NCBI GenBank assembly: GCA_002753665.1
Contig: PEAP01000003.1
Coordinates: 15,054 to 79,053 of the forward strand
DNA from: Magnetococcales bacterium DC0425bin3
Lineage (GTDB): Bacteria; Pseudomonadota; Magnetococcia; Magnetococcales; DC0425bin3
Reading direction: 5' to 3'
DNA: 64,000 nt
The position numbers were made by a program, and so were the translations under genes. The notes under the pieces were generated by a model. The model saw only the letters and a list, made by a program, of their open reading frames with translations. It made no database searches and was not told the origin of the DNA. Every line of letters begins with the position of its first letter. Position 1 is the stretch's first letter. This document shows, piece after piece, positions 5,360-20,393 of this stretch.

Positions 5360-5803
5360 ATGCGCATCCTCACCGCCTGCGACCACGGAGCCTATGAATT
5401 GAAAGAACTGTTGCGGCACCATCTGGAAAGCCGCAACCATGCCGTCGTCAACCTGGGCACGGACGGCCCGGAGTCGGTGGACTATCCCGATTACGCCGCC
5501 AAACTGTGCCGGGCCCTGCTGGCCGGCGAGGGGGAGCGGGGCATTCTGTTGTGCGGCACCGGCATCGGCATCTCCATCGCCGCCAACCGGTTTCCCGGCA
5601 TCCGCGCCGCTCTGTGCCACGACGAGTTGACCGCCCGCCTGGCCCGGGAACACAACGATGCCAACGTGCTGGTTCTGGGGGGACGCACCACCGGAGCGGC
5701 CACGGCCCTGGGCATTCTGGATGTCTGGCTGGACACCCCCTTCGCGGGGGGACGCCATCAACGCCGTCTGGACCGTCTGGAGCAGGTGACGGTGCGCGGC
5801 TGA
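5360..5803 (+). CDS. rpiB: ribose-5-phosphate isomerase B
   Basis: [15 protein letters not shown]...[22 protein letters not shown]...NVLVLGGR is a typical RpiB/LacAB sequence. The track ORF has an upstream non-homologous extension from 5186. Confidence 0.9.
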
Positions 5804-5841
5804 CCCCATTCCATCGACCACATACAGGGAAGGAACGCCCC

Positions 5842-7107
5842 ATGTCCGCGTTGCCCGTCGATTTGCCGCAATTCGACCCGGAGGTTCATGCCGCCATCCA
5901 GGGGGAGCTGGGCCGCCAGCGGGATCAGATCGAGCTGATCGCCTCGGAAAACATCGTCAGCCCCGCGGTGCTGGCCGCCCAGGGCTGCGTGATGACCAAC
6001 AAGTATGCCGAGGGCTATCCCCACAAGCGCTATTACGGCGGCTGCGAATTCGTGGACCAGGTGGAAGACCTGGCCATCCAGCGGGCCAAGGCGTTGTTCG
6101 GCTGTGGATTCGTCAACGTGCAGCCCCACTCCGGGTCCCAGGCCAACATGGGCGCCTACCTGGCCCTCATCGATCCGGGCGATACCATCCTGGGCATGTC
6201 CCTGGCCCATGGCGGTCACCTGACCCATGGCGCCACGGTCAACTTCTCCGGGCAGGTGTTCAGGGCGGTGCAGTACGGGTTGGACAAGGTCACCGAGCGG
6301 ATCGATTACGATCAAGTGGCGGCCCTGGCCCGGGAGCATCGGCCCCGGGTGATCGTGGCCGGCGCGTCGGCCTACAGCCGGGTGATCGACTTTCCCCGTT
6401 TTCGGGAGATCTGCGACGCCATCGGCGCCGCCCTGGTGGTGGACATGGCCCATTTCGCCGGCCTGGTGGCCACCGGCGAGCATCCCAGCCCCATCCCCTA
6501 CGCCGACGTGGTGACCACCACCACCCACAAAACCCTGCGGGGCCCCCGGGGCGGGATGATCCTCACCAACCGGGAGGATCTGGCCAAGAAGATCAACTCC
6601 CGGATCTTTCCCGGCATTCAGGGCGGCCCGCTGATGCATGTCATCGCCGCCAAGGCGGTGGCCTTCAAGGAAGCCCTGAGCCCCGATTTCAAGGTCTACT
6701 GCCAGCAGATCCGCAAGAACGCCGTGGCCCTGGCCGAGGCCCTGGTGGCGGGCGGTCTGCGCATCGTCTCCGGCGGCACCGACAACCACCTGATGCTGGT
6801 GGATCTGACCAGCCGCAACATCACCGGCAAGGACACCGAGGCGGCCCTGGAGCGGGCCGGGCTCACCTGCAACAAGAACGCCATTCCCGGCGATCCCCGC
6901 AGTCCCTTCGTCACCTCCGGCATCCGGCTGGGCACCCCTGCCGGCACCACCCGGGGCCTGGGTACCGGGGAGTTCACCGCCATCGGCCGGTGGATCGTGC
7001 AGGTGGTGGACGGGGTGTCCCGGGGGGATGCCGGCGCCATCGAACGGGAGGTCCGCGCCCAGGTGGCGGAATTGTGCCGGCGGTTTCCGGTCTATCCCAC
7101 CCTGTGA
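5842..7107 (+). CDS. glyA: serine hydroxymethyltransferase
   Basis: [30 protein letters not shown] and the PLP-lysine region [16 protein letters not shown]. The start is ATG 5842; the track ORF (5506) carries an off-homology extension. Confidence 0.97.
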
Positions 7108-8237
7108 ACGGCTCCGACGCCCGTTTCATGGCCCGCGCCCTGGCCCTGGCCGCCCGCGGGGCCGGGCGCACCCGTCCCAACCCCACGGTGGGCTGCGTGG
7201 TGGTGGCCGACGGCCGGGCCGTGGGATGGGGCTGGCACCGCCGGGCTGGAGCGCCCCATGCCGAGGTGGAGGCCCTGGCCATGGCCGGTTCCCGAGCCCA
7301 GGGCGCCACCGCCTACGTCACCCTGGAACCCTGCAGCCATTTCGGCCGCACGCCGCCCTGCGCCGACGCCCTGATCCGGGCCGGCGTGGCCCGGGTGGTG
7401 GCCGCGGTCACCGATCCCAACCCCCGGGTGGCGGGGCAGGGTCTCGAACGATTGCGGCAGGCCGGCATCGAGGTCACCCTCGGCGTGGGCCAACAGGAGG
7501 CGTCCCGCCTGCTGGCCCCGTTCTTCTCCTGGGTGACCCGCGGCCGGCCCAGCCTCACCCTGAAGAGCGCCGCCTCCCTGGACGGCAAGATCGCCACCCG
7601 CAGCGGCGAAAGCCAATGGATCACCGGTCCGGCCGCCCGCACCCGGGTGCAGCGCCTGCGGGATGTCCACGACCTAGTGCTGGTGGGCATCGGCACCGTG
7701 CTGGCCGATGATCCCCAGCTCAACTGCCGCCTGCCGGGCGGACGGGATCCGGTCCGCCTGGTGGTGGACTCCCAGCTGCGCACCCCCCCCGACAGTCGGA
7801 TCCTGACCAGCTCCACCACCGCCCCGACCTGGATCGCCACCACCGGAACAGCGGATCCGGACCGCGCCAAACGCCTGGCCGCCGCCGGGGCGGAGATCCT
7901 CCACTGCCCGGACGATGGCCAGGGCCGGGTGGATCTGGCCGCCCTGCTGACCCTGCTGGGCCAGCGGGACATCACCAGCGTCCTCTCCGAGGCCGGCGGC
8001 ACCCTGACCCAGGCCCTGCTGGACGCCCGGCTGGCCGACCGGCTGGCCCTGTTCCTGGCGCCCCGGCTGATCGGCGGACGGACCGCCCCGGGCTTTCTGG
8101 CCGGCGCGGGCATCGGGCATCTGGCGGATTCGCCATGGCTGGAGGACATGACCGTGACCCGGTTGGGTGACGATTGGCTTCTGGAAGGATCCCTCCGTTA
8201 CACACCAGCGTCGGAAACACCATGTTTACGGGATTGA
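7104..8237 (+). CDS. ribD: bifunctional diaminohydroxyphosphoribosylaminopyrimidine deaminase / 5-amino-6-(5-phosphoribosylamino)uracil reductase
   Basis: [12 protein letters not shown]...[12 protein letters not shown]...HAEVEAL...[14 protein letters not shown] deaminase motifs plus a reductase domain. GTG 7104 overlaps the glyA stop (GTGA); the alternative start is ATG 7128. Confidence 0.92.
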
Positions 8238-8905
8238 TCGCGGATGTGGGCAAGATCGTTGCGGTGCAACGCTCCAGCCAGGATTGGCGCCTGCGCATCG
8301 CCTGCGGCTTCGACATGACCGGCATCACCCTGGGCGACTCCATCGCCGTCAACGGCGCCTGCCTGACCGTGGTGGCGAAGTCCCAGTCCACCTTCGACGT
8401 GGACGCCTCCCTGGAAACCGTGCAACGCACCACCTTCGCTACCCTGAGCCCGGGCGCCCCGGTCAACCTGGAACAGGCCCTGACCCTCGCCGACCGCCTG
8501 GATGGCCACCTGGTGCAAGGCCATGTGGATGCCGTGGGCCAGGTGGACCGCATCACCCCCAAGGGACGCTCGGTGGAAATATGGTTCCGTGTCCCCGCCT
8601 CTTCGGGAAGGTATATTGTGGAAAAAGGCTCCATCGCCGTGGACGGCGTCAGCCTGACCGTCAACAGCGTGCGGGACATGGGCGAGGAAACCGGCTTTGC
8701 GGTCAACATCATCCCCCATACCCAACTGAAGACCACCCTGGCCGGCCTGACCCCCGGCAGCAGGGTCAACGTGGAAACCGACCTGATCGGTCGTTATGTG
8801 GAGCGCCTGCTCAAGGGGGGCGCGGTCCATTCTCCGGCGGCTCCGAGCAAAGCCGCCCCAGGCCCCATCGACGAGGCATGGCTGCGCAGCAAGGGCTTTG
8901 CCTGA
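8222..8905 (+). CDS. ribE: riboflavin synthase (alpha chain)
   Basis: [12 protein letters not shown]...[13 protein letters not shown]...[12 protein letters not shown]: the duplicated lumazine-binding motif of riboflavin synthase. Confidence 0.9.
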
Positions 8906-8921
8906 ATTTTCGGAAGACCCG

Positions 8922-10157
8922 ATGTCCCAAACCTTCAATACGATCCAAGAAATCATCACCGACTTCGCCGCCGGCCGCATCGTCATCCTGGTGGACGACG
9001 AAAACCGCGAAAACGAAGGCGACCTGATCGTCGCTGCGGAAAAATGCACCCCGGAAGTGGTCAACTTCATGGCCATGCACGGCCGGGGGCTGATCTGCCT
9101 GGCCCTGACCGAGGAGCGCGTCCGTTTCCTCCAGCTGCCCCTGATGGTGGTGGACAACGACGCCAAGTTCAAGACCGCCTTCACCGTCTCCATCGAGGCC
9201 CGCACCGGGGTGACCACCGGCATCTCGGCCCACGACCGGGCCTGCACCGTGGCTGCCGCCATCAACCCGGACGGCACCCCCCAGGACGTGGTGCGGCCCG
9301 GCCATGTGTTCCCCCTGGTGGCCCGGGACGGCGGCGTGCTGGTGCGCACCGGCCATACCGAAGCCTCGGTGGACCTGGCCCGCCTGTCCGGCCTGAACCC
9401 CTCGGCGGTGATCTGCGAAATCCTCAAACACGACGGCAGCATGGCCCGGGTGCCGGACCTGCTGGAGTTCGCCAGACATCACGGCATCAAGATCGGCACC
9501 ATCGCCGACCTGATCTCCTACCGCATCGGCAACGAAAAGATGGTCCACCGGGCGGTGGAAACCCGGCTGCCCAGCGCCTTCGGCGGCGAGTGGCAGCTGA
9601 TCGTCTTCACCAACGACGTGGACGACTTCCAGCATGTGGCCCTGGTCAAGGGCGAGGTCAACGACGGCGAACCGGTGCTGGTGCGGGTGCATTCCGAGTG
9701 CCTCACCGGCGACCTGTTCGGCAGCCTGCGCTGCGACTGCGGCAGCCAGTTGCAGTCGGCCATGGAGATGATCGGCGAGGCCCGCCGCGGGGTGATCCTC
9801 TACCTGCGCCAGGAAGGCCGGGGCATCGGGCTGGTCAACAAGATGCACGCCTACAACCTGCAAGATCAGGGGCTCGATACGGTGGAAGCCAACAAAGAGC
9901 TTGGCTTCTCCCCCGACCTGCGGGACTATGGCATCGGTGCGCAGATCCTGCGGGATCTGGGAATCACCCGGTTGAAACTGCTGACCAACAACCCGAAAAA
10001 GATCATCGGGCTGGAAGGGTACGGCATGGAGGTGGTGGAACGGGTGCCCATCGAGATCAAGTCCCGGGAACACAATGCCCGCTACCTGGCCGCCAAGAAG
10101 CACAAGCTCGGCCACCTGATCCGGCAGTTTCCGGAGGTCCCGGGTCCGGGAACGTGA
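8922..10157 (+). CDS. ribBA: bifunctional 3,4-dihydroxy-2-butanone-4-phosphate synthase / GTP cyclohydrolase II
   Basis: [13 protein letters not shown] (DHBP synthase) and [21 protein letters not shown]...[12 protein letters not shown] (GTP cyclohydrolase II). Confidence 0.95.
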
Positions 10158-10169
10158 GGAAAGTCTGAC

Positions 10170-10646
10170 ATGGATACGAGTCGAATCAATACGCTGGAGG
10201 GTCATCTGGATGCCTCCGGCCTGCGCTGCGGCCTGATCGTGAGCCGGTTCAACAGCTTCATCACCGAACGGCTGGTGGACGGGGCCGTGGACTGCCTGCT
10301 GCGCAACGGCGCCGAGGCCGGCAACCTCACCCTGATCCGGGTGCCGGGGGCCTTCGAGATTCCCATGGCGGCCCGGCGGGCGGCCCTGGCCGGCCGGTTC
10401 GACGCCCTGATCTGCCTGGGGGCGGTGATCCGGGGGGCCACACCCCATTTCGACTATGTGGCCGCCGAGGTCAGCAAGGGGGTCGCCACCGTCAGCCTGG
10501 AGACCGGCCTGCCCATCGGCTTCGGGGTGTTGACCACCGAAACGGTGGAGCAGGCCATCGACCGGGCCGGGGCCAAGGCCGGCAACAAGGGCTGGGACAC
10601 CGCCCTGTCGGTCATCGAAATGGTGAATCTCTACAAGAAGCTATAG
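10170..10646 (+). CDS. ribH: 6,7-dimethyl-8-ribityllumazine synthase
   Basis: 158 aa; [12 protein letters not shown]...VPGAFEIP...[14 protein letters not shown] are lumazine synthase motifs. Confidence 0.95.
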
Positions 10647-10659
10647 ATCGCGGACCGGA

Positions 10660-11121
10660 ATGCCGAACAACCGCAACACCGGCCAGCGCCGGGCCATGGG
10701 TGGACGCCGCAAGGCGCGGGAACTGACTGTGCAGGCCCTGTACCAGAGCGAACTGGCAGGGGTGGCGGTGGAGGAGGCAGTGGAGCAACTGTGTCAGGAT
10801 GCCGGGGAACGGGCCGACCTGGACTATTTCCGCCGCCTGGCCGGAGGCATCGCCCGACGGCTGCCGGAACTGGACGGCTGGATCGACACCGCCGTGCAGA
10901 AATGGACCCCGGAACGGATCTCCATCGTGGACCGCAACGTCATGCGGCTGGGGATCTATGAACTGCTGGCGGAGCCGGACGTGCCGCGCAATGTTGCCAT
11001 CAACGAGGCCATCGAGCTTTCCAAACGGTTCGGAGGGGAGGGTTCCGGACGTTTCGTCAACGGGATATTGGACCAGGTTGCCGCCCAGGTGCGCAAGGAT
11101 GGCGACCCGGGGGAGGAGTAG
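10660..11121 (+). CDS. nusB: transcription antitermination factor NusB
   Basis: RRKARELTVQALYQ...INEAIELSKRFGGEGSGRFVNGILD. The ribH-nusB-thiL order is conserved. Confidence 0.9.
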   Translation: MPNNRNTGQRRAMGGRRKARELTVQALYQSELAGVAVEEAVEQLCQDAGERADLDYFRRLAGGIARRLPELDGWIDTAVQKWTPERISIVDRNVMRLGIYELLAEPDVPRNVAINEAIELSKRFGGEGSGRFVNGILDQVAAQVRKDGDPGEE

Positions 11122-11123
11122 AG

Positions 11124-12140
11124 ATGGCGACCAACCAGACCATCGCCACGGTGGGTGAGTTCGGGTTGATCCAGCGGTTGTTCGTCCCCCTCGGCGCGGT
11201 GGCCGGCATGCAGCCGCCCCTGGTGGGGATCGGCGACGACGGCGCGGTGACCGCCGTGCCCCGCACCCAGCACCTGGTGACCACCACCGACACCCTGGTG
11301 GAGGGGATTCATTTCAATTCGGACATGGATCCCCTGCTGCTGGGGCGCAAGTCGCTGGCGGTCAATCTGTCCGACCTGGCCGCCATGGGGGCCGCCCCCC
11401 AATGGTATCTGCTGTCCCTCGCCCTGCCCCCCTCCACCCCCCTGATCTGGGCCGAGCAGTTCGCCCAGGGCCTGCGGCAGGCCGCCGAACCGTTCAATGT
11501 GGCGCTGATCGGCGGCGACACGGTGGGGGCCAAGGGCGGCATCGTCATCACCATCACCCTGCTGGGCCTGGTGGGAGAGGACCGGGCGGTGAAGCGCTCC
11601 GGCGCCGCGGCCGGAGACCTGATCTATGTCTCCGGCACCATTGGCGACGCGGCCCTGGGGTTGGGGCAGATGCTGGGGCGGCTGCCCCGGCTCGATGCCG
11701 ACGAGGCGGTGTTCCTGGAGCAGCGCCAGCAGCTGCCCGAGCCCCGGGTGGCCCTGGGATTGTTGTTGCAGGACACCGCGGTGGTGCGGGCGGCCATCGA
11801 TGTGTCCGACGGTCTGGTGGCCGATCTGGGGCACCTGTGCGTGGCTTCCGGGGTGGCGGCCCGGGTGGATTGGGAGCGGCTGCCCCTGTCCCCGGCGGCC
11901 CGGCGGCTGGTGGCGGCCCGGGGGGAGGCCGTGGAACGCCTGATCCTGACCGGCGGGGAGGATTACGAGCTGCTGTTCGCCGTCCCGTCCGGAGCCCGGG
12001 CCGGGGTGGAGGAAGTCGCCCGGCGGGTGGGGGTACCATTGACGGAAATCGGGGAGTTCCAGGCCGGCGCGCCGCGGGTGACCGTTGTGAAGAACGGCGC
12101 ACCCTTCGATCCCGGTCCGGGCGGCTGGACGCACTTCTAG
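11124..12140 (+). CDS. thiL: thiamine-monophosphate kinase
   Basis: VGEFGLIQRL...GIGDDGAV...TTDTLVEGIHF...NLSDLAAMGA are AIR-synthase-related ThiL motifs. Confidence 0.9.
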   Translation: MATNQTIATVGEFGLIQRLFVPLGAVAGMQPPLVGIGDDGAVTAVPRTQHLVTTTDTLVEGIHFNSDMDPLLLGRKSLAVNLSDLAAMGAAPQWYLLSLALPPSTPLIWAEQFAQGLRQAAEPFNVALIGGDTVGAKGGIVITITLLGLVGEDRAVKRSGAAAGDLIYVSGTIGDAALGLGQMLGRLPRLDADEAVFLEQRQQLPEPRVALGLLLQDTAVVRAAIDVSDGLVADLGHLCVASGVAARVDWERLPLSPAARRLVAARGEAVERLILTGGEDYELLFAVPSGARAGVEEVARRVGVPLTEIGEFQAGAPRVTVVKNGAPFDPGPGGWTHF

Positions 12141-12145
12141 GTCTC

Positions 12146-12949
12146 ATGGAGCCCAGGGTCCTCGAAGCGCTGTTGCGGGAGGTGGCCGCGGGCCGCACCG
12201 GAGTGGCGGACGCCCTGGAGCGGCTGCGGTGTTTTCCGGTGGACGCGGTGGCCGACGGCGGGGAAATCGTGGCCCGGCTGGATACCCATCGCCGCCTGCG
12301 CCAGGGTTTTCCCGAGGTGATTCTGGCCCAGGGCAAGCGCTTCGACCACTTGCGGAGCATCGTGGAGCGGGCGTTGGGGCATGACGGGGATCTGTTGATC
12401 ACCCGCCTGGGATCCGGTCGCCTGCAGCGCCTGCAAGAGTTGTTTCCCGAACTGCAAAGCGAGGGGCAGTCCGGTTGTCTGTACCGCCAACGGCAACCGG
12501 GGCCCGGCCAAGGACTGGTGGGGGTGCTGTGCGCCGGCACCAGCGACATCCCCGTGGCCCAGGAGGCGGCGCTCACCGCCCGGCTGCTGGGGGCGCGGGT
12601 GGAGACCTGGTTCGACGCCGGGGTGGCGGGTCTGCACCGCCTGCTGGCGGCGGGGGAGCTGCTGCGCCGGGGACGGGTGTTCGTGGTGGCCGCCGGCATG
12701 GAAGGCGCCCTGCCCTCGGTGGTGGGGGGGCTGGTGGATCGCCCGGTCATCGCCGTGCCCACCGACGGCGGCTATGGCACGGCCTTCGGCGGGGTCTCCG
12801 CCCTGCTGGGCATGCTGAACAGCTGCGCGGCCAACGTGACGGTGGTCAACATCAACAACGGCTTCGGCGCCGGCTATGTGGCGGGGTTGATCAACCGGGG
12901 GGGCGAGCGTGAGGAGGAGCATGGCCAACCCTGCCTATCTCAACGATGA
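12146..12949 (+). CDS. larB: LarB-like nickel-pincer cofactor biosynthesis protein (PurE/AIR-carboxylase-related)
   Basis: ARLDTHRRLRQGFPEVILAQGK N-terminal part and a PurE-like C-terminal part (GTSDIPVAQEAA...VAAGMEGALPSVVGGL...VIAVPT). The track ORF 11402.. is an off-frame extension over thiL. Confidence 0.75.
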   Translation: MEPRVLEALLREVAAGRTGVADALERLRCFPVDAVADGGEIVARLDTHRRLRQGFPEVILAQGKRFDHLRSIVERALGHDGDLLITRLGSGRLQRLQELFPELQSEGQSGCLYRQRQPGPGQGLVGVLCAGTSDIPVAQEAALTARLLGARVETWFDAGVAGLHRLLAAGELLRRGRVFVVAAGMEGALPSVVGGLVDRPVIAVPTDGGYGTAFGGVSALLGMLNSCAANVTVVNINNGFGAGYVAGLINRGGEREEEHGQPCLSQR

Positions 12950-14324
12950 CTGGACCAACCAGGTCGGGCAACTGGGGGCGCTGAAGTTCGCCGAAACCGC
13001 CCGGGAGCTGATCCTCACCGCCCCCACCCCCTTTGCCCTCGCCATCGGCGGACGCTGGGGATCGGGCAAGACCTCCATGCTGCGCACCCTGATGCGGGCG
13101 TTGGGAGGGCAGTTCCTCGTTCATCTTGGTGGGGAAGGCACCGCCTTCGAAGAACACCAGCCGCCGATCGATGATGCGCTCGATCCCTCCAAGAACAAGG
13201 AGTTGAAAAAACGCCTGAAGAACGTCCGCACCGTCTGGTTCAATCCCTGGCAGTTCCAGCACGAGCCCAACCCCCTGGTGCCGCTGTTGCAGGAGATCCG
13301 CGAGCAGGTGCGCTACCAGTTCCTCCGCGGCGGGGCCAAGCAGCTGGCCAATCTGGTGGAGGCGGGCATTCAGTCCCTGGGCTCTTTGGCGGACGCGGCA
13401 ATCCAGGTCTCCACCGGGGCCAGAAAGTTCGAGGTCTTCCAGCGGATGTCCGACACCCTGCGCCAGACGGCGGAGCGGGAGCGACGGGAGAGTTTCAGCC
13501 AGCCGGTGGACGCCCAGCGCTTCTTCCTGCAGTTCGAGCAGGCCGTGCGCCAAGTGCTGGGCCTCAGGGCCAAGGAAACCAACGACTCCGCCCGGTTGGT
13601 GGTCTTCATCGACGACCTGGACCGCTGCAGCGATGCGGTGGTCTTCGCCCTGCTGGAGGCCATCAAACTCTACCTCTCCAGCCGCCACTGCGTGTTCGTC
13701 TTCGGCCTGGACCGCACCCATGTGGAGAAGGCCGTGGCCCAGGCCGGGGGCTACACCGACCTGGAGGCGGCCCAGTATGTGGAAAAGCTGTTCCAGACCC
13801 GGCTGCACCTGCCGGTGCCGGATGCGACACAGTGGAAAACGTTCATCGAAGGCCTGCTGGCGGCTTTGGATATCCGGCAGCAAGCGGCCGAGGTCGAGCT
13901 GCTGGCCACCCTGCTCCCCCCCAACCCGCGCCAAGCCAAGAACTATCTCAACGGCCTGAAGCTCCATCTGACCATCGGCCCCAAAGAGGAACCCCGTCGC
14001 GCCATTCTGGTCCACCTGCTGCGGGTGTGGTTTCCAGACGTTTATGAACTGCTCCTGCAAAACCCGAAGGAGGTGCTCGAGGATCTGATGCACATGTGCA
14101 GGGAGGAGTCCCCGGGCGACACGGTGCGCAAGCAGTACATCCACCATGTCATGGAGAACCCCCTGATGGCCGACACCAAGGCCGATCCCAAAACGGTCCT
14201 GGATCCCAGGCGGTTCCATGCCCTGCGGGCCGGGGCGGCACGGGCCGAAGCCCTGAGGACCTTCAAGCAACAATTCAGTGACACTTTTCCCACAGTGGCT
14301 GATCTGAAGGCCCACTTGATCTGA
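12921..14324 (+). CDS. KAP-family P-loop NTPase (soluble; no transmembrane insert seen)
   Basis: Walker A AIGGRWGSGKTSML, FNPWQF, Walker B LVVFIDDLDRC, YVEKLFQTRLHLP and a NPRQAKNYLN motif, all characteristic of KAP NTPases. ATG 12921 is preceded by GAGGAGG. The start overlaps larB by 29 nt. Confidence 0.85.
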   Translation: MANPAYLNDDWTNQVGQLGALKFAETARELILTAPTPFALAIGGRWGSGKTSMLRTLMRALGGQFLVHLGGEGTAFEEHQPPIDDALDPSKNKELKKRLKNVRTVWFNPWQFQHEPNPLVPLLQEIREQVRYQFLRGGAKQLANLVEAGIQSLGSLADAAIQVSTGARKFEVFQRMSDTLRQTAERERRESFSQPVDAQRFFLQFEQAVRQVLGLRAKETNDSARLVVFIDDLDRCSDAVVFALLEAIKLYLSSRHCVFVFGLDRTHVEKAVAQAGGYTDLEAAQYVEKLFQTRLHLPVPDATQWKTFIEGLLAALDIRQQAAEVELLATLLPPNPRQAKNYLNGLKLHLTIGPKEEPRRAILVHLLRVWFPDVYELLLQNPKEVLEDLMHMCREESPGDTVRKQYIHHVMENPLMADTKADPKTVLDPRRFHALRAGAARAEALRTFKQQFSDTFPTVADLKAHLI

Positions 14325-14332
14325 GGCTTGCC

Positions 14333-17300
14333 ATGGATCCCAAGCGCCAAGCCGTCCTGCAACAGCGGTTGAAAAGCAGCCTCACCGCCTGGATGAACCC
14401 CACCTTCGACACCTGGGAGGCGCGGCAATGGCTGGTGGATTATCGGCGATACCTGCGGGAGACCTATGCCCGGGCCGACTTCGCCGGGGTGCTGGATGCC
14501 AAACAGCGGGTGCCCATGGCCCTGGCGGATATCTTCGTCGCGGAGCGCTTCGCCGCCGAGGATCTGACCAGCCGGGAGGGGGATGCCGACCTGTCCCGGC
14601 GTCTGGCCGCCACGCCCGGGGAGGAGATCGAGGATCTGCTGGTATCCCTGGGAGCCGATGAAACCACTCCCGCGGTGAATGGCCGGGTGGTGCTGGTGGG
14701 GCCGCCGGGGTCGGGCAAGTCGGCCCTGGTGCGCATGCTGGCCGCGGACTGTGCCGACGACGCCATGCGGCCCCTCAACCGTCATCTGGGGCGGCGACTG
14801 GTGATCCCCTTCATCCTGCGGGAGGCCTCCCTGGCCGGGGTGCGCACCACGGACCAGTTGCTGGAGCGTTGGCGGCAGAGGGTTGCGGTCCAGAGTCAAG
14901 GGAAGCACCAGGTGGACCTGGCGCAGGCCAAGCTGTATCTGGACAAAGGCTGGGCCATCGTCGCCTTCGACGGGGTGGACGAAATCGGCTATCAGGCGCG
15001 CATCCGGGTCCGTCATCTGGCCTGTGCCCTGGCAGCGCGTTTTCCCGGGGTGGCGGTGCTGGTGACCGGCCGGCCGGTGGGATTCCAGAAGCTGCCCTAC
15101 GACCAACTGTCCCCCCGGATATGGCGGGCCTTGAGTCAACGAGAAGGACGGGCGCTGACGCCCTTCGTCTGGCCCCTCCGTTATCTGCGACCTTTCGACG
15201 ACGGCCAGATCGAAAGCTACATCACACGCTGGTTCGCCGCCGGCTATCCCGAGGATCACGACCGCCAACAACGGGATGGGACCCAGCTCCTGGAGGCCCT
15301 GAAGAACAACACCGGTCTGCAGGGTCTCAAGCGTCGGCCCATCTATCTGGCCATCCTCACCTTTGTCCACGACAAGAAGGGCAAACTGCCCAACAGCCAG
15401 ACGTTGGCCTACGAGGCCATGGTGGAGGCCTATCTGGACGTGCTGGATGCCGCCAAGGATCTGGATCATGCCGTCAGCCCGCCCTTTCCCCGGGTTGTCA
15501 AGTGGCAGGTCCTGGAGCGGCTGGCCTATGGTTTGCATAGCCGTGATCCGGCCTTGTCCGCCCAGGGGGCGGGCAAGGACAATCCCTTCAACCTGCGCAT
15601 CGGCTGCGAGCCGTTCCAGCAGTGGCTGCAGGCTTCCGGTGGCTTCACCCAGGAGCAGGCGAAGGATATGCTGACCTTTCTCATCGCCCGGGCCGGGCTG
15701 CTGGTGGAGTCGGAAGAGGGGGTGCTGGCCTTCAGTCACCTGTCGTTCCAGGAGTTCCTGGTGGCGGCCCATGTGTTCCGGGAACTGGGCGAGTATATCT
15801 TCGACGATCCCAGCGGCTTTCTTCGGAATCGCCTGCTGGATCCCCTCACCCGCGACAGCGCCTGGCACCCCGCCGGGCTGGCCTTCTTCGGCCTGGTGAC
15901 CCACAAACAGGGTCACCAGCATTTCCAGGAACGAATCCTGCGCAAATGCTGGCTGGAGTCCCCAGCGCCCACAGTCAACGAAAATGTCAACCGCTTCCGG
16001 TTTCTCGACCGTCTGCTGTCCGAAGGGGAATCCGCTCTGTCCGATGCCTTCAAGCAAGAACTCTGGGGGCATTATTGGGATCGGGCCATCGCCCAATGGC
16101 ATGAGGACTGGATCATCCCCTTCGCCACTCCCGCCAACCATTGGGCGTGCTGGGGACCCCGGGTGGCCTCCACCATGGCGGAACGCTGGCAGCAACTCGC
16201 TCCCTCCTCCCAGGACGCCTTCAAGGAACTGACCCTGTTCTCTCTCCTGCCGCCGGACTGGATGGGGGAACAATGGAAAAGCCTGGAGGCCAAAGCAATC
16301 CGGGACCGGTGGATCGCTGCGGCCAAGCAGGACGCGACCTTGTTGAAGGCCCTGGATCTGCATGCCATCCATTCTCCGACATGGCCGCTATTGCGGTCCG
16401 CGTTTGGTTTCGAGAAGCTGCTGCTGACCAGCCTGACTTATTGGTCCTCCAATGGATTGCTATTCCCCTTCGTTCTTCTGCGGCATGACCAGGCCTTTCG
16501 TCAGGTGAGGAATCATTATCTTTCTCTGTTGGCTCTTGAGCTATTGACAGAGATCAGCCTCAATGGTGTTGAGAAGGCTCTGGCTCGGGATCTGGATCTG
16601 GCTCGGACTCTGGATCGGGCTCTGGCTCTGGCTCGGGATCGGGCTCTGGCTCGGACTCTGGATCGGGCTCTGGCTCTGGCTCGGGATCGGGCTCTGGCTC
16701 TGGATCGGGCTCTGGCTCGGGATCTGGATCTGGCTCGGACTCTGGATCGGGCTCTGGCTCGGGATCGGGATCGGAATCTGGCTCTGGCTCGGGCTCTGGC
16801 TCGGGATCTGGATCTGGCTCTGGATCTGGCTCTGGATCTGGCTCTGGATCGGGATCGGGATCGGGATCTGGATCTGGATCTGGATCGGGCTCGGGATCTG
16901 GCTCGGGATCGGGATCGGGATCTGAGTTTTGAAAAAACTAGAATTTTATATTATCATATTACCAATTGGATTTTGATCAACTCTTGCGTCGCCAACACCC
17001 CTCCCTGGTTTCCGACTCCAGCACAGGCCTGCGCGGCCGTGGAACGGCTGAGGGAGGAACAACCCGAATTGGCCGCCCTCTTTGATCGGGACTGGTTCCC
17101 CTACCGGTCATTGAAGAAGAAAGCCAGCCAGCCCTTCCCCCCCGAACCCCTGGAGGCCACCCACCACCGTTTCTACCGTTTTCTGCGCCATTGGTTACAG
17201 AAAGAAGGACAGGATGTCTCCGACCTGCCCGAACACCTCTCCCTCCAGCCGGGCAAGGCGTTCGCCAAGTACCATGGCGCCGAGGCGGCCCAACGCTGCC

Positions 17301-17401
17301 TGAAGGATCTGCAAGCCGCTGGCTGGGACCCCACGGTGTGGCCGCCGGCGGATGTCGATGCCTGGATTCGCAAGCCATCCCGAAAAAAAAGATCCCGCTG
17401 A
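14333..17401 (+). CDS. NACHT-domain (STAND) NTPase with C-terminal helical region, a 116-aa dipeptide-repeat tract and an uncharacterised ~158-aa tail
   Basis: Walker [19 protein letters not shown], Walker [13 protein letters not shown], then VLVTGRP and [12 protein letters not shown], typical of bacterial NACHT. Starts 8 nt after the KAP gene stop. No recognisable N-terminal effector domain. Confidence 0.85.
16577..16924 (+). repeat. 58 uninterrupted hexanucleotide units G[C/A]TC[T/G]G (3 ACTCTG and 1 AATCTG variants) encoding [A/D/T/N][L/R] dipeptides inside the NACHT gene
   Basis: Direct reading: gct ctg gct cgg gat ctg gat ctg gct cgg act ctg gat cgg ... gat cgg gat cgg gat ctg. There is a higher-order 48-bp unit ([16 protein letters not shown] x2). 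No stop codon in any of the six frames. Confidence 0.95.
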
Positions 17402-17486
17402 CGCCAATCCAGCCGATAGGGAGACAGGAGGTCGGGATTTCGATCCCATGCCCGGCCCTGTTCGCGGTCTCGAAGGAGCGTCCACC

Positions 17487-18194
17487 ATGTCGCCCGCCTA
17501 CGACCCCCTGGCCCCGGCCCGGGAAAGCTACCTCTTCGCCCATCTGTCGGAGCCGGCCTGGCAGCGGCTCCGGCCGGCCTTCCAGCGCCGACGCCTGGAA
17601 TCCGGCGCCCTGCTCTTCCAGCAGGGCGACCCCTTCGAGCATTTCTTCTTCGTGCTGTCCGGGGGGGTCAAGCTGTTCCGGATGTCGGCGGAAGGGCAGG
17701 AAAAGGTGCTGGAGGTGGTGGAGCCCGGCGCCACCTTCGCCGAGGCCATCATGTTCTCGGGCGGCCACCGCTATCCGGTGAACGCCGAGGCGGTGACGGA
17801 GTCGGTGCTGCTGGCCATGCCCCAGAAACCCTACATGGAGTTGCTGAAGAAACAGCCGGAACTCTGCTTCGACCTGCTGGCGGGCATGAGCCGGCGGCTG
17901 CATGGCCTGGTGATGGAAATCAACCGGTTGACCCTGCTGCGGGCGCGGGAACGCCTCATCGGCTACCTGGTGCGGCAGGCGGTGCCCGCCGAAAGCGGCG
18001 GGGCGGTGGTCAAGCTGCCCATGACCCGCAAGGTGCTGGCCTCGCGCCTGTCCATCCAGCCGGAAACCCTCTCCCGGCTGCTGGGCGCCCTCAAGCGGGC
18101 CGGTCAGATCCGGGAGGCCGAATCGGCCCTGCTCATCCCCGACCCCGCCGCCCTGCGGGCGCTGATGGCGGAAGAAAACCCGGACCCGGAATGA
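17487..18194 (+). CDS. Crp/Fnr-family transcriptional regulator
   Basis: cNMP-binding-like beta-roll (LFQQGDPFEHFFFVLSGGVKLFRMSAEGQEKVLEVV) and a C-terminal HTH (TRKVLASRLSIQPETLSRLLGALK). ATG 17487 is preceded by GAAGGAG. Confidence 0.85.
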   Translation: MSPAYDPLAPARESYLFAHLSEPAWQRLRPAFQRRRLESGALLFQQGDPFEHFFFVLSGGVKLFRMSAEGQEKVLEVVEPGATFAEAIMFSGGHRYPVNAEAVTESVLLAMPQKPYMELLKKQPELCFDLLAGMSRRLHGLVMEINRLTLLRARERLIGYLVRQAVPAESGGAVVKLPMTRKVLASRLSIQPETLSRLLGALKRAGQIREAESALLIPDPAALRALMAEENPDPE

Positions 18195-18215
18195 CCGCCG
18201 CCGGGTCCGGCGCGC

Positions 18216-20393
18216 TCAAAACGGCAGGATGTCCTTGAGAGGAATCCCCAGCTTCTCCTCCAGCTTCTTGACCTTCTCGCCGGTCTTGCCGGTCTGGAGC
18301 TTCTCCAGCAGTTTTTCCTTGGCCTGGGTCTTGGCGGCGGATTCCAACAACTCGGCCAGGTCCACCTGAACCTCCGGCTTGCCGAAGCCCCCGGTCACCC
18401 GCACCGGAATTTCCAGCCCCTTGAGATCCCGGGCGGTATGGTCGATCTCCTCCAGGGCCGGCAGCACCTTGGCCTTGAGCAGGTAATCCAACGTCTCGCC
18501 GGGCAGGTCCACCTGGCCGCCGCCCTCGACCTCCAGCAGGCCGGAGGCGGCCACCAGGTCGCGGTTGTCCACCACCCCCTGGCGAATGGTCGCCGACCCG
18601 GACAGGGTCTTGAAGACAGTCTTGCCCTGGTCCTCCCGCAGGGTGAGCGGACGCTGCTTGAGCAGGGCATAGGCTTCCAGGATGCGCCGCTCCAGGTCCA
18701 CGCCGAACACCGCGCCATCGGCCACGTCGAAACGGGCGCTGCCGTCGAGGTTGGAACGCAGCGTCGCCGCATCCAGACCCCGGCTGGTCAGATCCATCCC
18801 CAGGGTGGCGGTGCCGGAGACCAGATCCATGTCCAGCATCTCCTTCAGCAGCGGCTGGATCTTCACCCCCCGGAAGTCCGGTTTCAAGGCCAGGGCGGGG
18901 GCGGCACCCCGCAGGTCCAGCTGGGCGGTGGCCTCCAGGGTGCCTTCATAGAGACTCGCCTGGAACGGATCCAGGCGCAGCAGGCCGTCCCGGGCCCGCA
19001 CCCGGGCCTGCAGGTTGGTGAACTGCCCGCCATGGGCGGTGAGCCGACCCAGGCGCAGACGACCTTCCAGATCCAAACCGGCCAGGGCTGCCAACGGCCG
19101 CGCGGCCGCCGGCGCCGGCCTGGCCGCTCCGGGAGCGGGGGACGGCTCCCCCGGGGCCGGACCCGCCGCCCCGGTCTGGGGCGGGAGCAGGTAGCGGTCC
19201 AGGTCCAGGTGATCCAGGTTCAGGTCGAAGCGGATGGTCGGCTTGGCGAAGCGGGTCACCACGGCGGTGCCGGTCAGGTGGGCGCCGTCCAGGTCCATGG
19301 CCAGCTTTTGCACCTCGGCCCGGTCCAGTCCGATCCCCAGGGTGGTTTCCAGGGCCACGGCGCCGAAGGCCTGGAGATCGGCCGGCACCGGCTGGCCCAG
19401 CCGTTCCAGCAGCCGGCGCGGATCGAAGCGGGCCAACGCGAGCTGGGCGTCGAAGCGGGGATCGCCGAGGATTTCCCGGCCGTCGATGCGACCGGTCAGT
19501 TGCAGATGGTCCACCACGCCCAGGGTCAGACCGGTCACCGTCAGGGTCTGATCGTCCAGGCTGGTGGCGATCTCGGCCGCGAGGGTCGCCTCCACCCCCT
19601 GGTCGGGCAGCCCCTCCCCCGCGGCCCGCAGGGCCAGGCGGGTGCCGGCCAGGCGGAAGTTCCGGGATTTCTGGTCGCCGTGGAGGGTGCCGGCCAGCTG
19701 CAAGGTCCCGGTGGTTTTGGGTTGGGCGTTGCGCCACTCCAGGCTCGAATCGATGGCCACCGGCTGGCCATGGGCCACCGGCCCGGTGGCCAGGTTGAAC
19801 CGTTCCACCGCCACCTGATCGCCGGTGGCCTGGTCGGCAAAGCGCACCGCGCCGTCGGTGATCTCCACCCCGCCGACGGTGACGGCGGCCAGGGCCAGAC
19901 CCGCCCCCTCCTCTCCGGAGCCCGGCTCCGGGGCGGTGGCGGGGGGAGTCGCAGCCGCGGGGGCCGGCGCGGCAGCGCCGGTCAGGCCGACCCAGTTGCC
20001 CCGCCCGGCGCGGTCCCGCTCCAGGTCCAGTTGCAGGCCCTCCACCACCACCCGGTTCACCTCCACCCGCCGGTCCAGCAGGGGCAGCAGCTTCACCCGG
20101 ATGTCCAGCCGTTTGACCTGGGCCATGGGGCGGTCGGAAAACAGCGGCGCGTTGGAGAGGGTCACCCGCTCCAGCTTCACCCCCACCCAGGGGAACAGGG
20201 ACAGGCCCACCTCCCCGCCGATGGTCAGGTCCCGGCCCGTGCGGTCCTTGACGGCTTGGATCAGGGCGGGCTTGTAGTCGTTGGGATCCACCACCAGGGG
20301 GACGATCACCACCGCGCCCAACCCCAGGATCACCATGGCCAACAGGAGAAACAGCACCGTCTTGAGAATCGTTCCCATGAGTTCCGGTTCCAT
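18216..20393 (-). CDS. asmA: AsmA-family outer-membrane assembly protein
   Basis: N-terminal TM anchor, then an AsmA N-domain (DPNDYKPALIQAVKDRTGRDLTIGGEVGLSLFPWVGVKLERVTLSN) and an AsmA C-domain (GSATIRQGVVDNRDL). Alternative start is M6 (20378). Confidence 0.8.
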   Translation of the reverse strand: MEPELMGTILKTVLFLLLAMVILGLGAVVIVPLVVDPNDYKPALIQAVKDRTGRDLTIGGEVGLSLFPWVGVKLERVTLSNAPLFSDRPMAQVKRLDIRVKLLPLLDRRVEVNRVVVEGLQLDLERDRAGRGNWVGLTGAAAPAPAAATPPATAPEPGSGEEGAGLALAAVTVGGVEITDGAVRFADQATGDQVAVERFNLATGPVAHGQPVAIDSSLEWRNAQPKTTGTLQLAGTLHGDQKSRNFRLAGTRLALRAAGEGLPDQGVEATLAAEIATSLDDQTLTVTGLTLGVVDHLQLTGRIDGREILGDPRFDAQLALARFDPRRLLERLGQPVPADLQAFGAVALETTLGIGLDRAEVQKLAMDLDGAHLTGTAVVTRFAKPTIRFDLNLDHLDLDRYLLPPQTGAAGPAPGEPSPAPGAARPAPAAARPLAALAGLDLEGRLRLGRLTAHGGQFTNLQARVRARDGLLRLDPFQASLYEGTLEATAQLDLRGAAPALALKPDFRGVKIQPLLKEMLDMDLVSGTATLGMDLTSRGLDAATLRSNLDGSARFDVADGAVFGVDLERRILEAYALLKQRPLTLREDQGKTVFKTLSGSATIRQGVVDNRDLVAASGLLEVEGGGQVDLPGETLDYLLKAKVLPALEEIDHTARDLKGLEIPVRVTGGFGKPEVQVDLAELLESAAKTQAKEKLLEKLQTGKTGEKVKKLEEKLGIPLKDILPF

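Follow-up and report, generated by a model that had tools for sequence, protein, structure and literature searches.

Bacterial NACHT/STAND proteins are now regarded as ancestors or analogues of the innate immune receptors of animals and plants, and the known routes to diversity on the sensor side of such receptors are domain swapping, mutagenesis of FGS/C-type-lectin domains by diversity-generating retroelements (DGRs), and the shuffling of long repeats in fungi. In fungal NOD-like receptors (NLRs) of the HET-E/HET-D/NWD type, highly similar WD40, ANK or TPR repeats are polymorphic in number and carry their diversity at few positions per unit. Here we describe a short-repeat counterpart in a 64,000-nucleotide stretch of Magnetococcales bacterium DC0425bin3 (GenBank assembly GCA_002753665.1, contig PEAP01000003.1, positions 15,054 to 79,053, forward strand), called the window below. 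A gene for a NACHT nucleoside triphosphatase (NTPase), next to a gene for a KAP-family NTPase, contains an uninterrupted tract of hexanucleotide units that encode alternating small and large residues. We found that in orthologues such tracts gain and lose whole hexamers, and we read the tract as probably a hypervariable stalk or spacer of the receptor.

Three other kinds of repeat are relevant to this comparison. The R region of the staphylococcal ClfA/Sdr proteins is a Ser-Asp dipeptide repeat whose length varies between strains and which is thought to be a domain-positioning stalk. In the contingency loci of Neisseria, Haemophilus and Campylobacter, slipped-strand mispairing produces heritable and reversible variants at a high rate through ON/OFF frameshifts. 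Pentapeptide repeats, A(D/N)LXX, have a period of 5, form a β-helix and are common in bacterial conflict proteins. Diversity-enhancing NLR evolution in fungi (PMC13449251) and simple-sequence contingency loci (PMC4700210, PMC7015867) have been treated in the literature, and the searchable text of Kibby et al. describes a NACHT 'hybrid' architecture in which a repeat module is combined with a small terminal domain (bioRxiv 10.1101/2022.07.19.500537). Bacterial NACHT proteins defend against phage in other systems (bioRxiv 10.1101/2022.07.19.500537), as do KAP NTPases in others (PMC13552941).

Results

A hexanucleotide tract in the coding sequence of a NACHT NTPase

The tract is 348 bp long, exactly 58 hexamers, which follow the form G[C/A]TC[T/G]G apart from four variant units (GCTCTG 15, GATCGG 14, GATCTG 13, GCTCGG 12, ACTCTG 3 and AATCTG 1). 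In the frame of the gene these encode the dipeptides AL (15), DR (14), DL (13), AR (12), TL (3) and NL (1), and the product, ([A/D/T/N][L/R])58, occupies residues 749–864 of the 1022-residue protein, starting ALARDLDL and ending DRDRDL. An earlier reading of the DNA letters, here the original prediction, had given the same unit count, composition and frame, and our recount confirmed every detail. Hexamer positions 3, 4 and 6 are invariant over the 58 units and the codons are monomorphic (Ala GCT 27/27, Asp GAT 27/27, Arg CGG 26/26, Leu CTG 32/32); outside the tract, GCT supplies only 6 of the 102 Ala codons of the same gene.

Tandem Repeats Finder (TRF) detects the array with periods of 12, 18, 42 and 48. 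A 6-unit degenerate pattern has 29 matches, all of them within the tract, against none in 100 shuffles, and a looser degenerate pattern has 55, again only in the tract (shuffle mean 0.05). The 48-bp unit that was predicted to occur twice in tandem does so as identical DNA, and this pair of 8-unit blocks is a recent multi-unit duplication within the array; another 48-bp block recurs farther along (Table 1). Stop codons are absent from all six frames of the tract, and it is for this reason that a mechanical open reading frame (ORF) appears over it in the +2 frame, as the original prediction had also explained. The array thus consists of near-perfect tandem units of no more than 6 bp inside a gene, and the reading frame continues past it into a conserved C-terminal domain. 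We take the tract to be a genuine, translated hexanucleotide microsatellite that lies in frame within coding sequence.

The tract holds 27 GATC sites in its 348 bp (78/kb vs 8/kb in the whole window), since the Asp codon, GAT, always has a C after it. In close orthologues the tracts have 28–57 GATC/kb, and the hexamers of more distant lineages lack GATC; the cluster is probably a by-product.

Table 1. Features of the KAP–NACHT locus, in window coordinates
Feature	Position	Strand	Basis
KAP-family P-loop NTPase gene, 471 amino acids, no obvious transmembrane segment	12909..14324	+	profile matches
NACHT (STAND) NTPase gene, 1022 amino acids, tract-bearing	14333..17401	+	ORF, Pfam, AlphaFold2
Walker A GPPGSGKS, residues 123-130	14699..14722	+	motif search
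Walker B region IVAFDGVDE, residues 209-217	14957..14983	+	motif search
All-helical region past the NACHT/winged-helix part, residues ~470-748, into the tract	15740..16576	+	AlphaFold2
Spurious +2-frame ORF (WLGIWIW...)	16563..16925	+	by-product of stop-free repeat
Hexamer tract ([A/D/T/N][L/R])58	16577..16924	+	unit count, TRF, degenerate-pattern scans
Two tandem 48-bp (8-unit) blocks, identical DNA	16601-16648 and 16649-16696 (16601..16696)	+	
Other 48-bp block, two copies 132 bp apart	16577-16624 (first), 16709-16756 (second)	+	
Conserved family-specific helical domain, residues 865-1022 (158 amino acids)	16925..17398	+	orthologue alignment, AlphaFold2

Whole-unit change of the tract among orthologues

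Orthologues (proteins P0001–P0016) are 39–46% identical to the NACHT protein of the window and come from Magnetococcales, Thiotrichales, Methylococcales and other Gammaproteobacteria metagenome-assembled genomes (MAGs). A period-2 tract of about 8 to 61 units stands at the same position in nearly all of them, as in ARARDLARAWAWAWDLDL, DRDRDRARIRAR..., TLDRTLDRAL... and AQAQAQ...ALDL; it is missing or eroded in L009, L010, P0006 and P0008. The closest match to the window protein is 46% identical and we found no close relative of the window strain, and exact-sequence cluster look-ups yielded no additional pairs of alleles among the distant relatives.

Nearly identical orthologous loci, whose differences fall mainly in the tract, show how it changes. 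Loci L002 and L330 differ at six places in 8.7 kb. Two of these are indels, of −6 and +12 bp (P0013 vs P0045), and lie inside the tract; of the four substitutions, one is at its edge and three are elsewhere, so that half of the differences belong to the tract. We saw each of the two alleles on four contigs, assembled from several samples, and assembly noise is therefore an unlikely source of the difference. The sole indel between P0012 and P0048 is a +12-bp, 4-residue duplication, again in the tract, and the single difference between L001 and L333 over 11,995 bp is a G-to-T change at hexamer position 5 of the tract. (Downstream of the orthologous NACHT gene, L001, at 11132–12764, and L333 also contain tandem repeats of ~1.4 kb, ~72% identical to one another and unrelated to the tract.) Hence in orthologues from metagenomes the tract changes by in-frame gain or loss of whole hexamers or blocks. 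Both the in-frame slippage foreseen by the original prediction and the multiples-of-6 differences that it had proposed to look for in relatives are found in these alleles. With a 6-bp unit and all indels multiples of 6, the changes are not ON/OFF frameshift switches.

Over longer distances the tract is the part of the protein that diverges fastest, in agreement with the suggestion that it is a fast-evolving region: pairs whose flanks are 76–90% identical have mid regions that are 16–35% identical and differ in length. P0006 (L329, 5001–8105) and P0010 (L005, 2523–5621) share a Cupin–KAP–NACHT context and have flanks that are 74% and 78% identical around a middle of 13% identity. P0006 has there an N/I/K-rich, non-repeat segment of ~165 residues with 23% GC, and P0010 a tract with 51% GC; the difference reads as a cassette-like replacement of the whole middle module.

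We tallied variation in 11 clean arrays comprising 466 units. Minor alleles at hexamer positions 1 to 6 number 19, 144, 0, 8, 178 and 7, so that second-codon positions account for 322 and the wobble positions, 3 and 6, for 7; the second-position changes switch A with D and L (or M) with R. Within the arrays A and D, like L and R, stay near 50:50, with no collapse to one unit type. Wobble bases are uniform within a lineage and differ between some lineages (T/G, C/T, G/G); a universal nucleotide constraint on wobble T3/G6, which we had entertained, was dropped once the C/T and G/G lineages were found. The uniformity within lineages probably reflects concerted evolution by slipped-strand or unequal-exchange turnover, and the recurring 2x2 mixture may be a maintained amino-acid polymorphism. 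The amino-acid pattern itself is probably under selection, because {A,D}x{L/M,R} recurs with different codons and because one tract, that of P0051 described below, uses many synonymous codons.

Distribution of the tract in KAP-linked NACHT proteins

The KAP–NACHT pair is kept in the orthologues amid otherwise unrelated neighbourhoods, and because the same pair recurs in this way its distribution appears typical of a mobile two-gene cassette. We extended the survey to 80 genome loci of NACHT relatives, 21–41% identical. Relatives of 26–30% identity have tracts at the equivalent place, about residues 700–900, built from lineage-specific hexamers: G[C/A]TA[T/G]G, encoding (A/D)(M/R), in 32–53 units in Campylobacterota and a Desulfobacteraceae MAG (25–34% GC); TCGC[T/G]G, encoding S(L/R), in 27–39 units in Alteromonadaceae; and G[C/A]CC[T/G]T, encoding (A/D)(L/R), in 31 units in SAR324, where the protein ends in the Pfam domain NCH2. 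A KAP gene lies directly upstream in these tract-bearing relatives, the SAR324 NACHT–NCH2 protein being the exception. In the same SAR324 locus (L082, 3–2936) a second NACHT protein is fused to an AAA_21/AbiEii-like ATPase domain; its gene lies ~0.9 kb upstream of the NACHT–tract–NCH2 gene, with one ORF between.

In all, 35 related loci have an adjacent, upstream, same-strand KAP gene, mostly overlapping or tens of nucleotides away, and the KAP domain was confirmed with Pfam for 4 distant loci. The tract occurs in 16 of these 35 KAP-linked loci vs 3 of 48 others; of these last three loci, two are truncated on the upstream side. Where a KAP-linked member lacks the tract, its place is taken by either leucine-rich repeats (LRRs) or unique non-repeat sequence. 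LRRs of near-identical 22-residue units stand exactly at the tract position in L032 and L041, and P0020 and P0022 have LRR Pfam matches. The arrays of L032 (3644–6556, a beta-proteobacterium MAG) and L041 (3887–6757, Shewanella oncorhynchi) are long (LTPLRELTQLQTLNLSGTQVSN) and are a second highly homogenised repeat type in the KAP-linked NACHT clade. The tract is therefore placed where these relatives carry LRRs, and to that extent the original prediction was right to put it at the usual position of a STAND/NLR sensor domain; it did not foresee that the tract is internal, with a conserved 158-residue domain after it.

The (A/D)(M/R) arrays (L013–L018, L024) contain in-frame ATG at 56–81% of large-residue positions, and their Arg codon is almost always AGG, which is expected to be uncommon in genomes as AT-rich as those of these Campylobacterota. 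Dozens of internal starts and uncommon codons might affect translation of these arrays.

The DNA motif (GMTCKG)n by itself is generic. When viral and metagenome contigs were scanned with (GMTCKG)5, there were no new members among the matches listed, which were mostly opposite-strand (EP)n, (GS)n linkers, or wrong-frame ARAR in GC-rich DNA.

Similar tracts before the NCH2 domain

A further x[L/R] tract lies directly before NCH2 in P0051, a protein of a different NACHT clade. Its codons are mixed (CTC/CTT/CTA, CGT/CGA/CGC/AGA, GAC/GAT) and form no DNA repeat. P0051 was found with phmmer using the tract alone, a search that returned 3 proteins, probably owing to composition filtering. Its gene (L326, 5075–6600) starts right after insertion-sequence transposase genes (DDE_Tnp_1, DUF4096) and seems to be a 3' fragment left over when an insertion sequence truncated a NACHT gene.

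Several cyanobacterial NCH2 proteins have like tracts immediately before NCH2. In Scytonema sp. RU_4_4 (L327, 5727–6519) a free-standing gene of 172 residues, divergent from a CyanoTRADDas_TM gene, combines a short x[L/R] tract with NCH2; the tract–NCH2 unit therefore also exists outside full-length NACHT proteins. A search with the NCH2 domain returned short fragments only and no full-length architectures. NCH2 (PF22727) was considered as a homologue of the terminal domain of the window protein and ruled out (hhalign probability 0.2%), and tracts of this kind therefore stand before two small helical domains that are not related to each other. The original prediction had proposed looking for other NACHT proteins with such tracts, and they are present in orthologues, in distant phyla and in the NCH2 clade. 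With this recurrence the tract is no one-off; it appears to be the local version of a hypervariable module that keeps its position in KAP-linked NACHT proteins across many phyla. The combination of a KAP–NACHT pair with a hexanucleotide small/large dipeptide module is apparently a broad, undescribed class; in the searchable literature we came across neither an account of such a tract nor one of the KAP–NACHT pair.

The tract and its neighbours in the protein

The alternation in the tract is between small (A/D/T/N) and large (L/R) residues. This replaces the charged/hydrophobic alternation suggested before: charge and hydrophobicity are independent at both positions, and the choice between L and R is statistically independent of that between A and D, both being run-random. 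The periodicity shows neither a heptad nor an α or β amphipathic pattern, nor a spectral peak at 100 degrees, and by these measures the tract is neither a coiled coil nor an amphipathic helix. It has no Pfam match to a folded repeat family (LRR, TPR, WD40, HEAT, ANK) and none to the pentapeptide family down to E=0.1, its period being 2 and not 5; a PDB sequence search with the tract gave chance matches to ABC-transporter signature regions only. Net charge is about 0 in the window tract (27 D, 26 R) and +13 to +22 in the S(L/R) arrays. Structure prediction of this region, as proposed by the original prediction, was run with AlphaFold2 (AF2) and gave no confident structure: residues 770–864 are drawn as long helices at a predicted local distance difference test score (pLDDT) of 31–42, with confident flanking helices entering the tract. 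With lower confidence, we would describe the tract as a stalk or tether of low complexity, either helical or extended in form, that is free to vary in length and surface.

The 158-residue domain after the tract is present in all orthologues and has the motifs WFPY, EP[IL]EA..H, WHG and GWD..WPP.DVD.W. AF2 predicts a seven-helix bundle (pLDDT 81). The domain has no Pfam match at E<=10 and no PDB or viral fold match at E<=0.001, and a search with it found just 13 representatives among 1.84 billion proteins. With this conserved domain behind it, the tract does not form the C terminus of the protein; it is an internal module between the NACHT–helical part and the small terminal domain.

The tract-bearing protein is a member of the NACHT/STAND class by its Walker A and B motifs, an above-threshold profile match and a NACHT-like predicted fold. 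The Pfam NACHT match (36.8 bits vs a gathering threshold of 26.7) spans residues 119–255. In an alignment of 15 sequences (A1), the Walker A columns G, S, G, K and S are nearly invariant and the Walker B residues A211, F212, D213, G214, D216 and E217 are invariant. The AF2 model has a mean pLDDT of 75, and a Foldseek search of the PDB with it gave NLRC4 (4kxf) and the NLRP3 NACHT as top matches, at E ~1e-8. Beyond the NACHT part, helices H470 to H768 have pLDDT values of mostly 80–94 until about residue 740, and the final helix before the tract (720–768) extends into it.

The KAP gene ends 8 nt before the NACHT gene starts. Its product matches Pfam KAP_NTPase (E=1.2e-26), PADLOC PDC-S20 (E=7.9e-30) and the NCBIfam QatA-like family (E=3.5e-24, under the curated cut-off). 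Upstream of the pair are the housekeeping genes glyA, ribD, ribBA, ribH, nusB and a thiL-like gene (5506–12140), and downstream are genes for a Crp/Fnr-type regulator and an AsmA-family protein (17352–20393); the cassette (12909–17401) has 62.7% GC vs 65.7% in the window. The surroundings of the pair in the window are housekeeping genes and not a defence island.

Discussion

With moderate confidence, we interpret the tract as a stalk or spacer on the sensor side of a putative KAP–NACHT conflict system, one that slippage makes hypervariable without loss of the reading frame. The dipeptide segment is part of the C-terminal half, the sensor side, of a NACHT NTPase that would act with the upstream KAP NTPase, and it would tether the NACHT–helical module to the small conserved C-terminal domain. 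The array would turn over by slipped-strand or unequal exchange as substitutions toggle A/D and L(M)/R, and slippage would yield a population of receptor variants differing in stalk length and composition.

Several points weigh against this interpretation. The length polymorphism was seen in metagenome orthologues and not at the window locus itself, and low pLDDT values together with the missing heptad and amphipathic signals leave the tract with no assignable structure; a stalk or tether role is proposed because of the position of the tract and its tolerance to length change. The strict small/large alphabet across phyla is not explained by a mere need for a spacer, and net charge is not conserved between arrays. 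About half of the KAP-linked relatives lack the tract, so that the system as such does not depend on it. Lastly, an antiphage defence role is assigned by analogy only, from the protein families and from similarity to PADLOC and NCBIfam profiles.

An alternative that we regard as unlikely, and that nevertheless deserves attention, is adaptive diversification, in which the tract itself would be a recognition or evasion surface. Its hypermutable DNA would be kept by selection as a contingency locus from which new A/D x L/R sequences and lengths keep arising, in an arms race whose opponents would be phages, phage inhibitors or conspecifics. The presence of LRR sensors at the tract position in relatives of the clade is in line with it, as are the excess of second-codon-position over wobble minor alleles, the 2x2 polymorphism that independent lineages retain although their codons differ, the rapid evolution of the tract and the swapping of the whole module, and the fact that the arrays are GC-rich and clean even in genomes of 25–36% GC. 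This surface is putative, however, and the second-position excess could come from reshuffling of old unit types, so that it does not prove ongoing positive selection. The conserved domain after the tract could be the real interaction module, and the cyanobacterial version is not repetitive in its DNA, which means that mutability is no universal requirement.

A more ambitious form of this idea seems to us rather doubtful: that the tract is a mutator maintained by selection, an ancient microsatellite, retained by KAP–NACHT immune receptors across bacterial phyla, that writes an ever-changing binary peptide (A/D x L/M/R) by in-frame slippage and two-position toggling and so sets recognition, inhibitor evasion or self/non-self specificity. 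If true, such a module would be a prokaryotic, template-free diversification of NLR-like receptors, unlike either DGRs or the shuffling of repeats in fungi.

We think it improbable that the tract is tolerated junk, a self-propagating microsatellite, harmless and functionless, in a permissive linker between domains. Whole-unit indels do arise from slippage without any selection, the length range is wide (0 to 61 units), some orthologues lack the tract or have it in eroded form, and AF2 assigns it no confident structure. Against this, the period-2 small/large pattern extends across phyla and over two NACHT families with unrelated terminal domains, and in P0051 it is written in non-repetitive synonymous codons; nor do the arrays collapse to a single unit type, and wobble changes are almost absent where A/D and L/R stay near 50:50.

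An element acting at the level of nucleic acid, whether a GATC (Dam/SeqA) cluster, an mRNA structure, an overlapping gene or a DGR variable region, is very improbable. Besides the density of GATC sites it could draw on an RNA fold z-score of −2.7, which is weak, and on frame +3, which reads (Ser-Gly)n and in which both main polymorphisms are synonymous; it is largely refuted by the lineage-specific hexamers of relatives, which have no GATC (GMTATG, TCGCKG, GMCCKT). A function of the GATC cluster was rejected on the same ground. The overlapping gene was rejected as well: no ORF extends beyond the repeat, and frame +3 is lost in relatives (e.g. with GCTTGG units). A DGR is excluded, since the 64-kb window contains no template-like second copy, even with a degenerate pattern, related neighbourhoods contain no reverse transcriptase, and the changes are C/A, G/T and whole-unit indels and not adenine-specific. 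That the tract or its length was mis-assembled from short reads is hardly credible, for although a near-perfect repeat of 348 bp exceeds a typical short read and the unit count in this assembly could be wrong, equivalent tracts occur in dozens of independent assemblies, the frame is preserved into the conserved C-terminal domain, and the two alleles of one orthologue were each seen on four contigs from several samples.

We continue to prefer the stalk or spacer interpretation. The finding itself adds a simpler route to the known means of receptor diversification: a six-base microsatellite within a receptor, conserved in position across phyla and changing in frame by whole units in natural populations. 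The KAP–NACHT pair with its three interchangeable C-terminal solutions, dipeptide tract, LRR and unique sequence, amounts to a natural experiment. The 322 vs 7 excess is an unusual evolutionary signature and one that is directly testable.

Comparison with known systems

Among NACHT proteins, those of cyanobacteria and SAR324 with NCH2 share an ALDRALDLAL-type tract before a small helical domain (P0051, P0054, P0062, P0077, L082). They differ from the window protein in their unrelated terminal domain, and no adjacent KAP gene is present in the loci seen. The window protein also fits the repeat module plus small terminal domain of the Kibby et al. hybrids, as far as their searchable text describes them; the modules named in that text are LRR, TPR, HEAT, β-propeller and pentapeptide, and a dipeptide tract or a KAP partner is not mentioned in it. 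The pentapeptide repeat proteins use a similar residue alphabet of A, D, L and R, with a period of 5 in place of the period of 2 found here.

The R region of ClfA/Sdr is likewise a long dipeptide repeat made from short DNA repeats and variable in length. It belongs to secreted, LPXTG wall-anchored proteins and consists of S-D, whereas the present tract consists of A/D-L/R and lies in a cytoplasmic NTPase without an LPXTG motif. With the contingency loci the tract shares slippage in an intragenic short tandem repeat; its 6-bp unit, unlike theirs, never shifts the frame, and the output is a graded change of protein length and sequence.

The fungal NLRs resemble the window protein in having internally near-identical repeats C-terminal to NACHT, with polymorphic number and few variable positions per unit. 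Their units are of ~42 residues, whereas here the unit is 2 residues (6 bp) and forms no recognised folded repeat. The tract described here is set in a bacterial host, with a KAP partner and with a conserved small domain after the repeats. The original prediction had likened it in logic to the repeats that diversify fungal NLRs.

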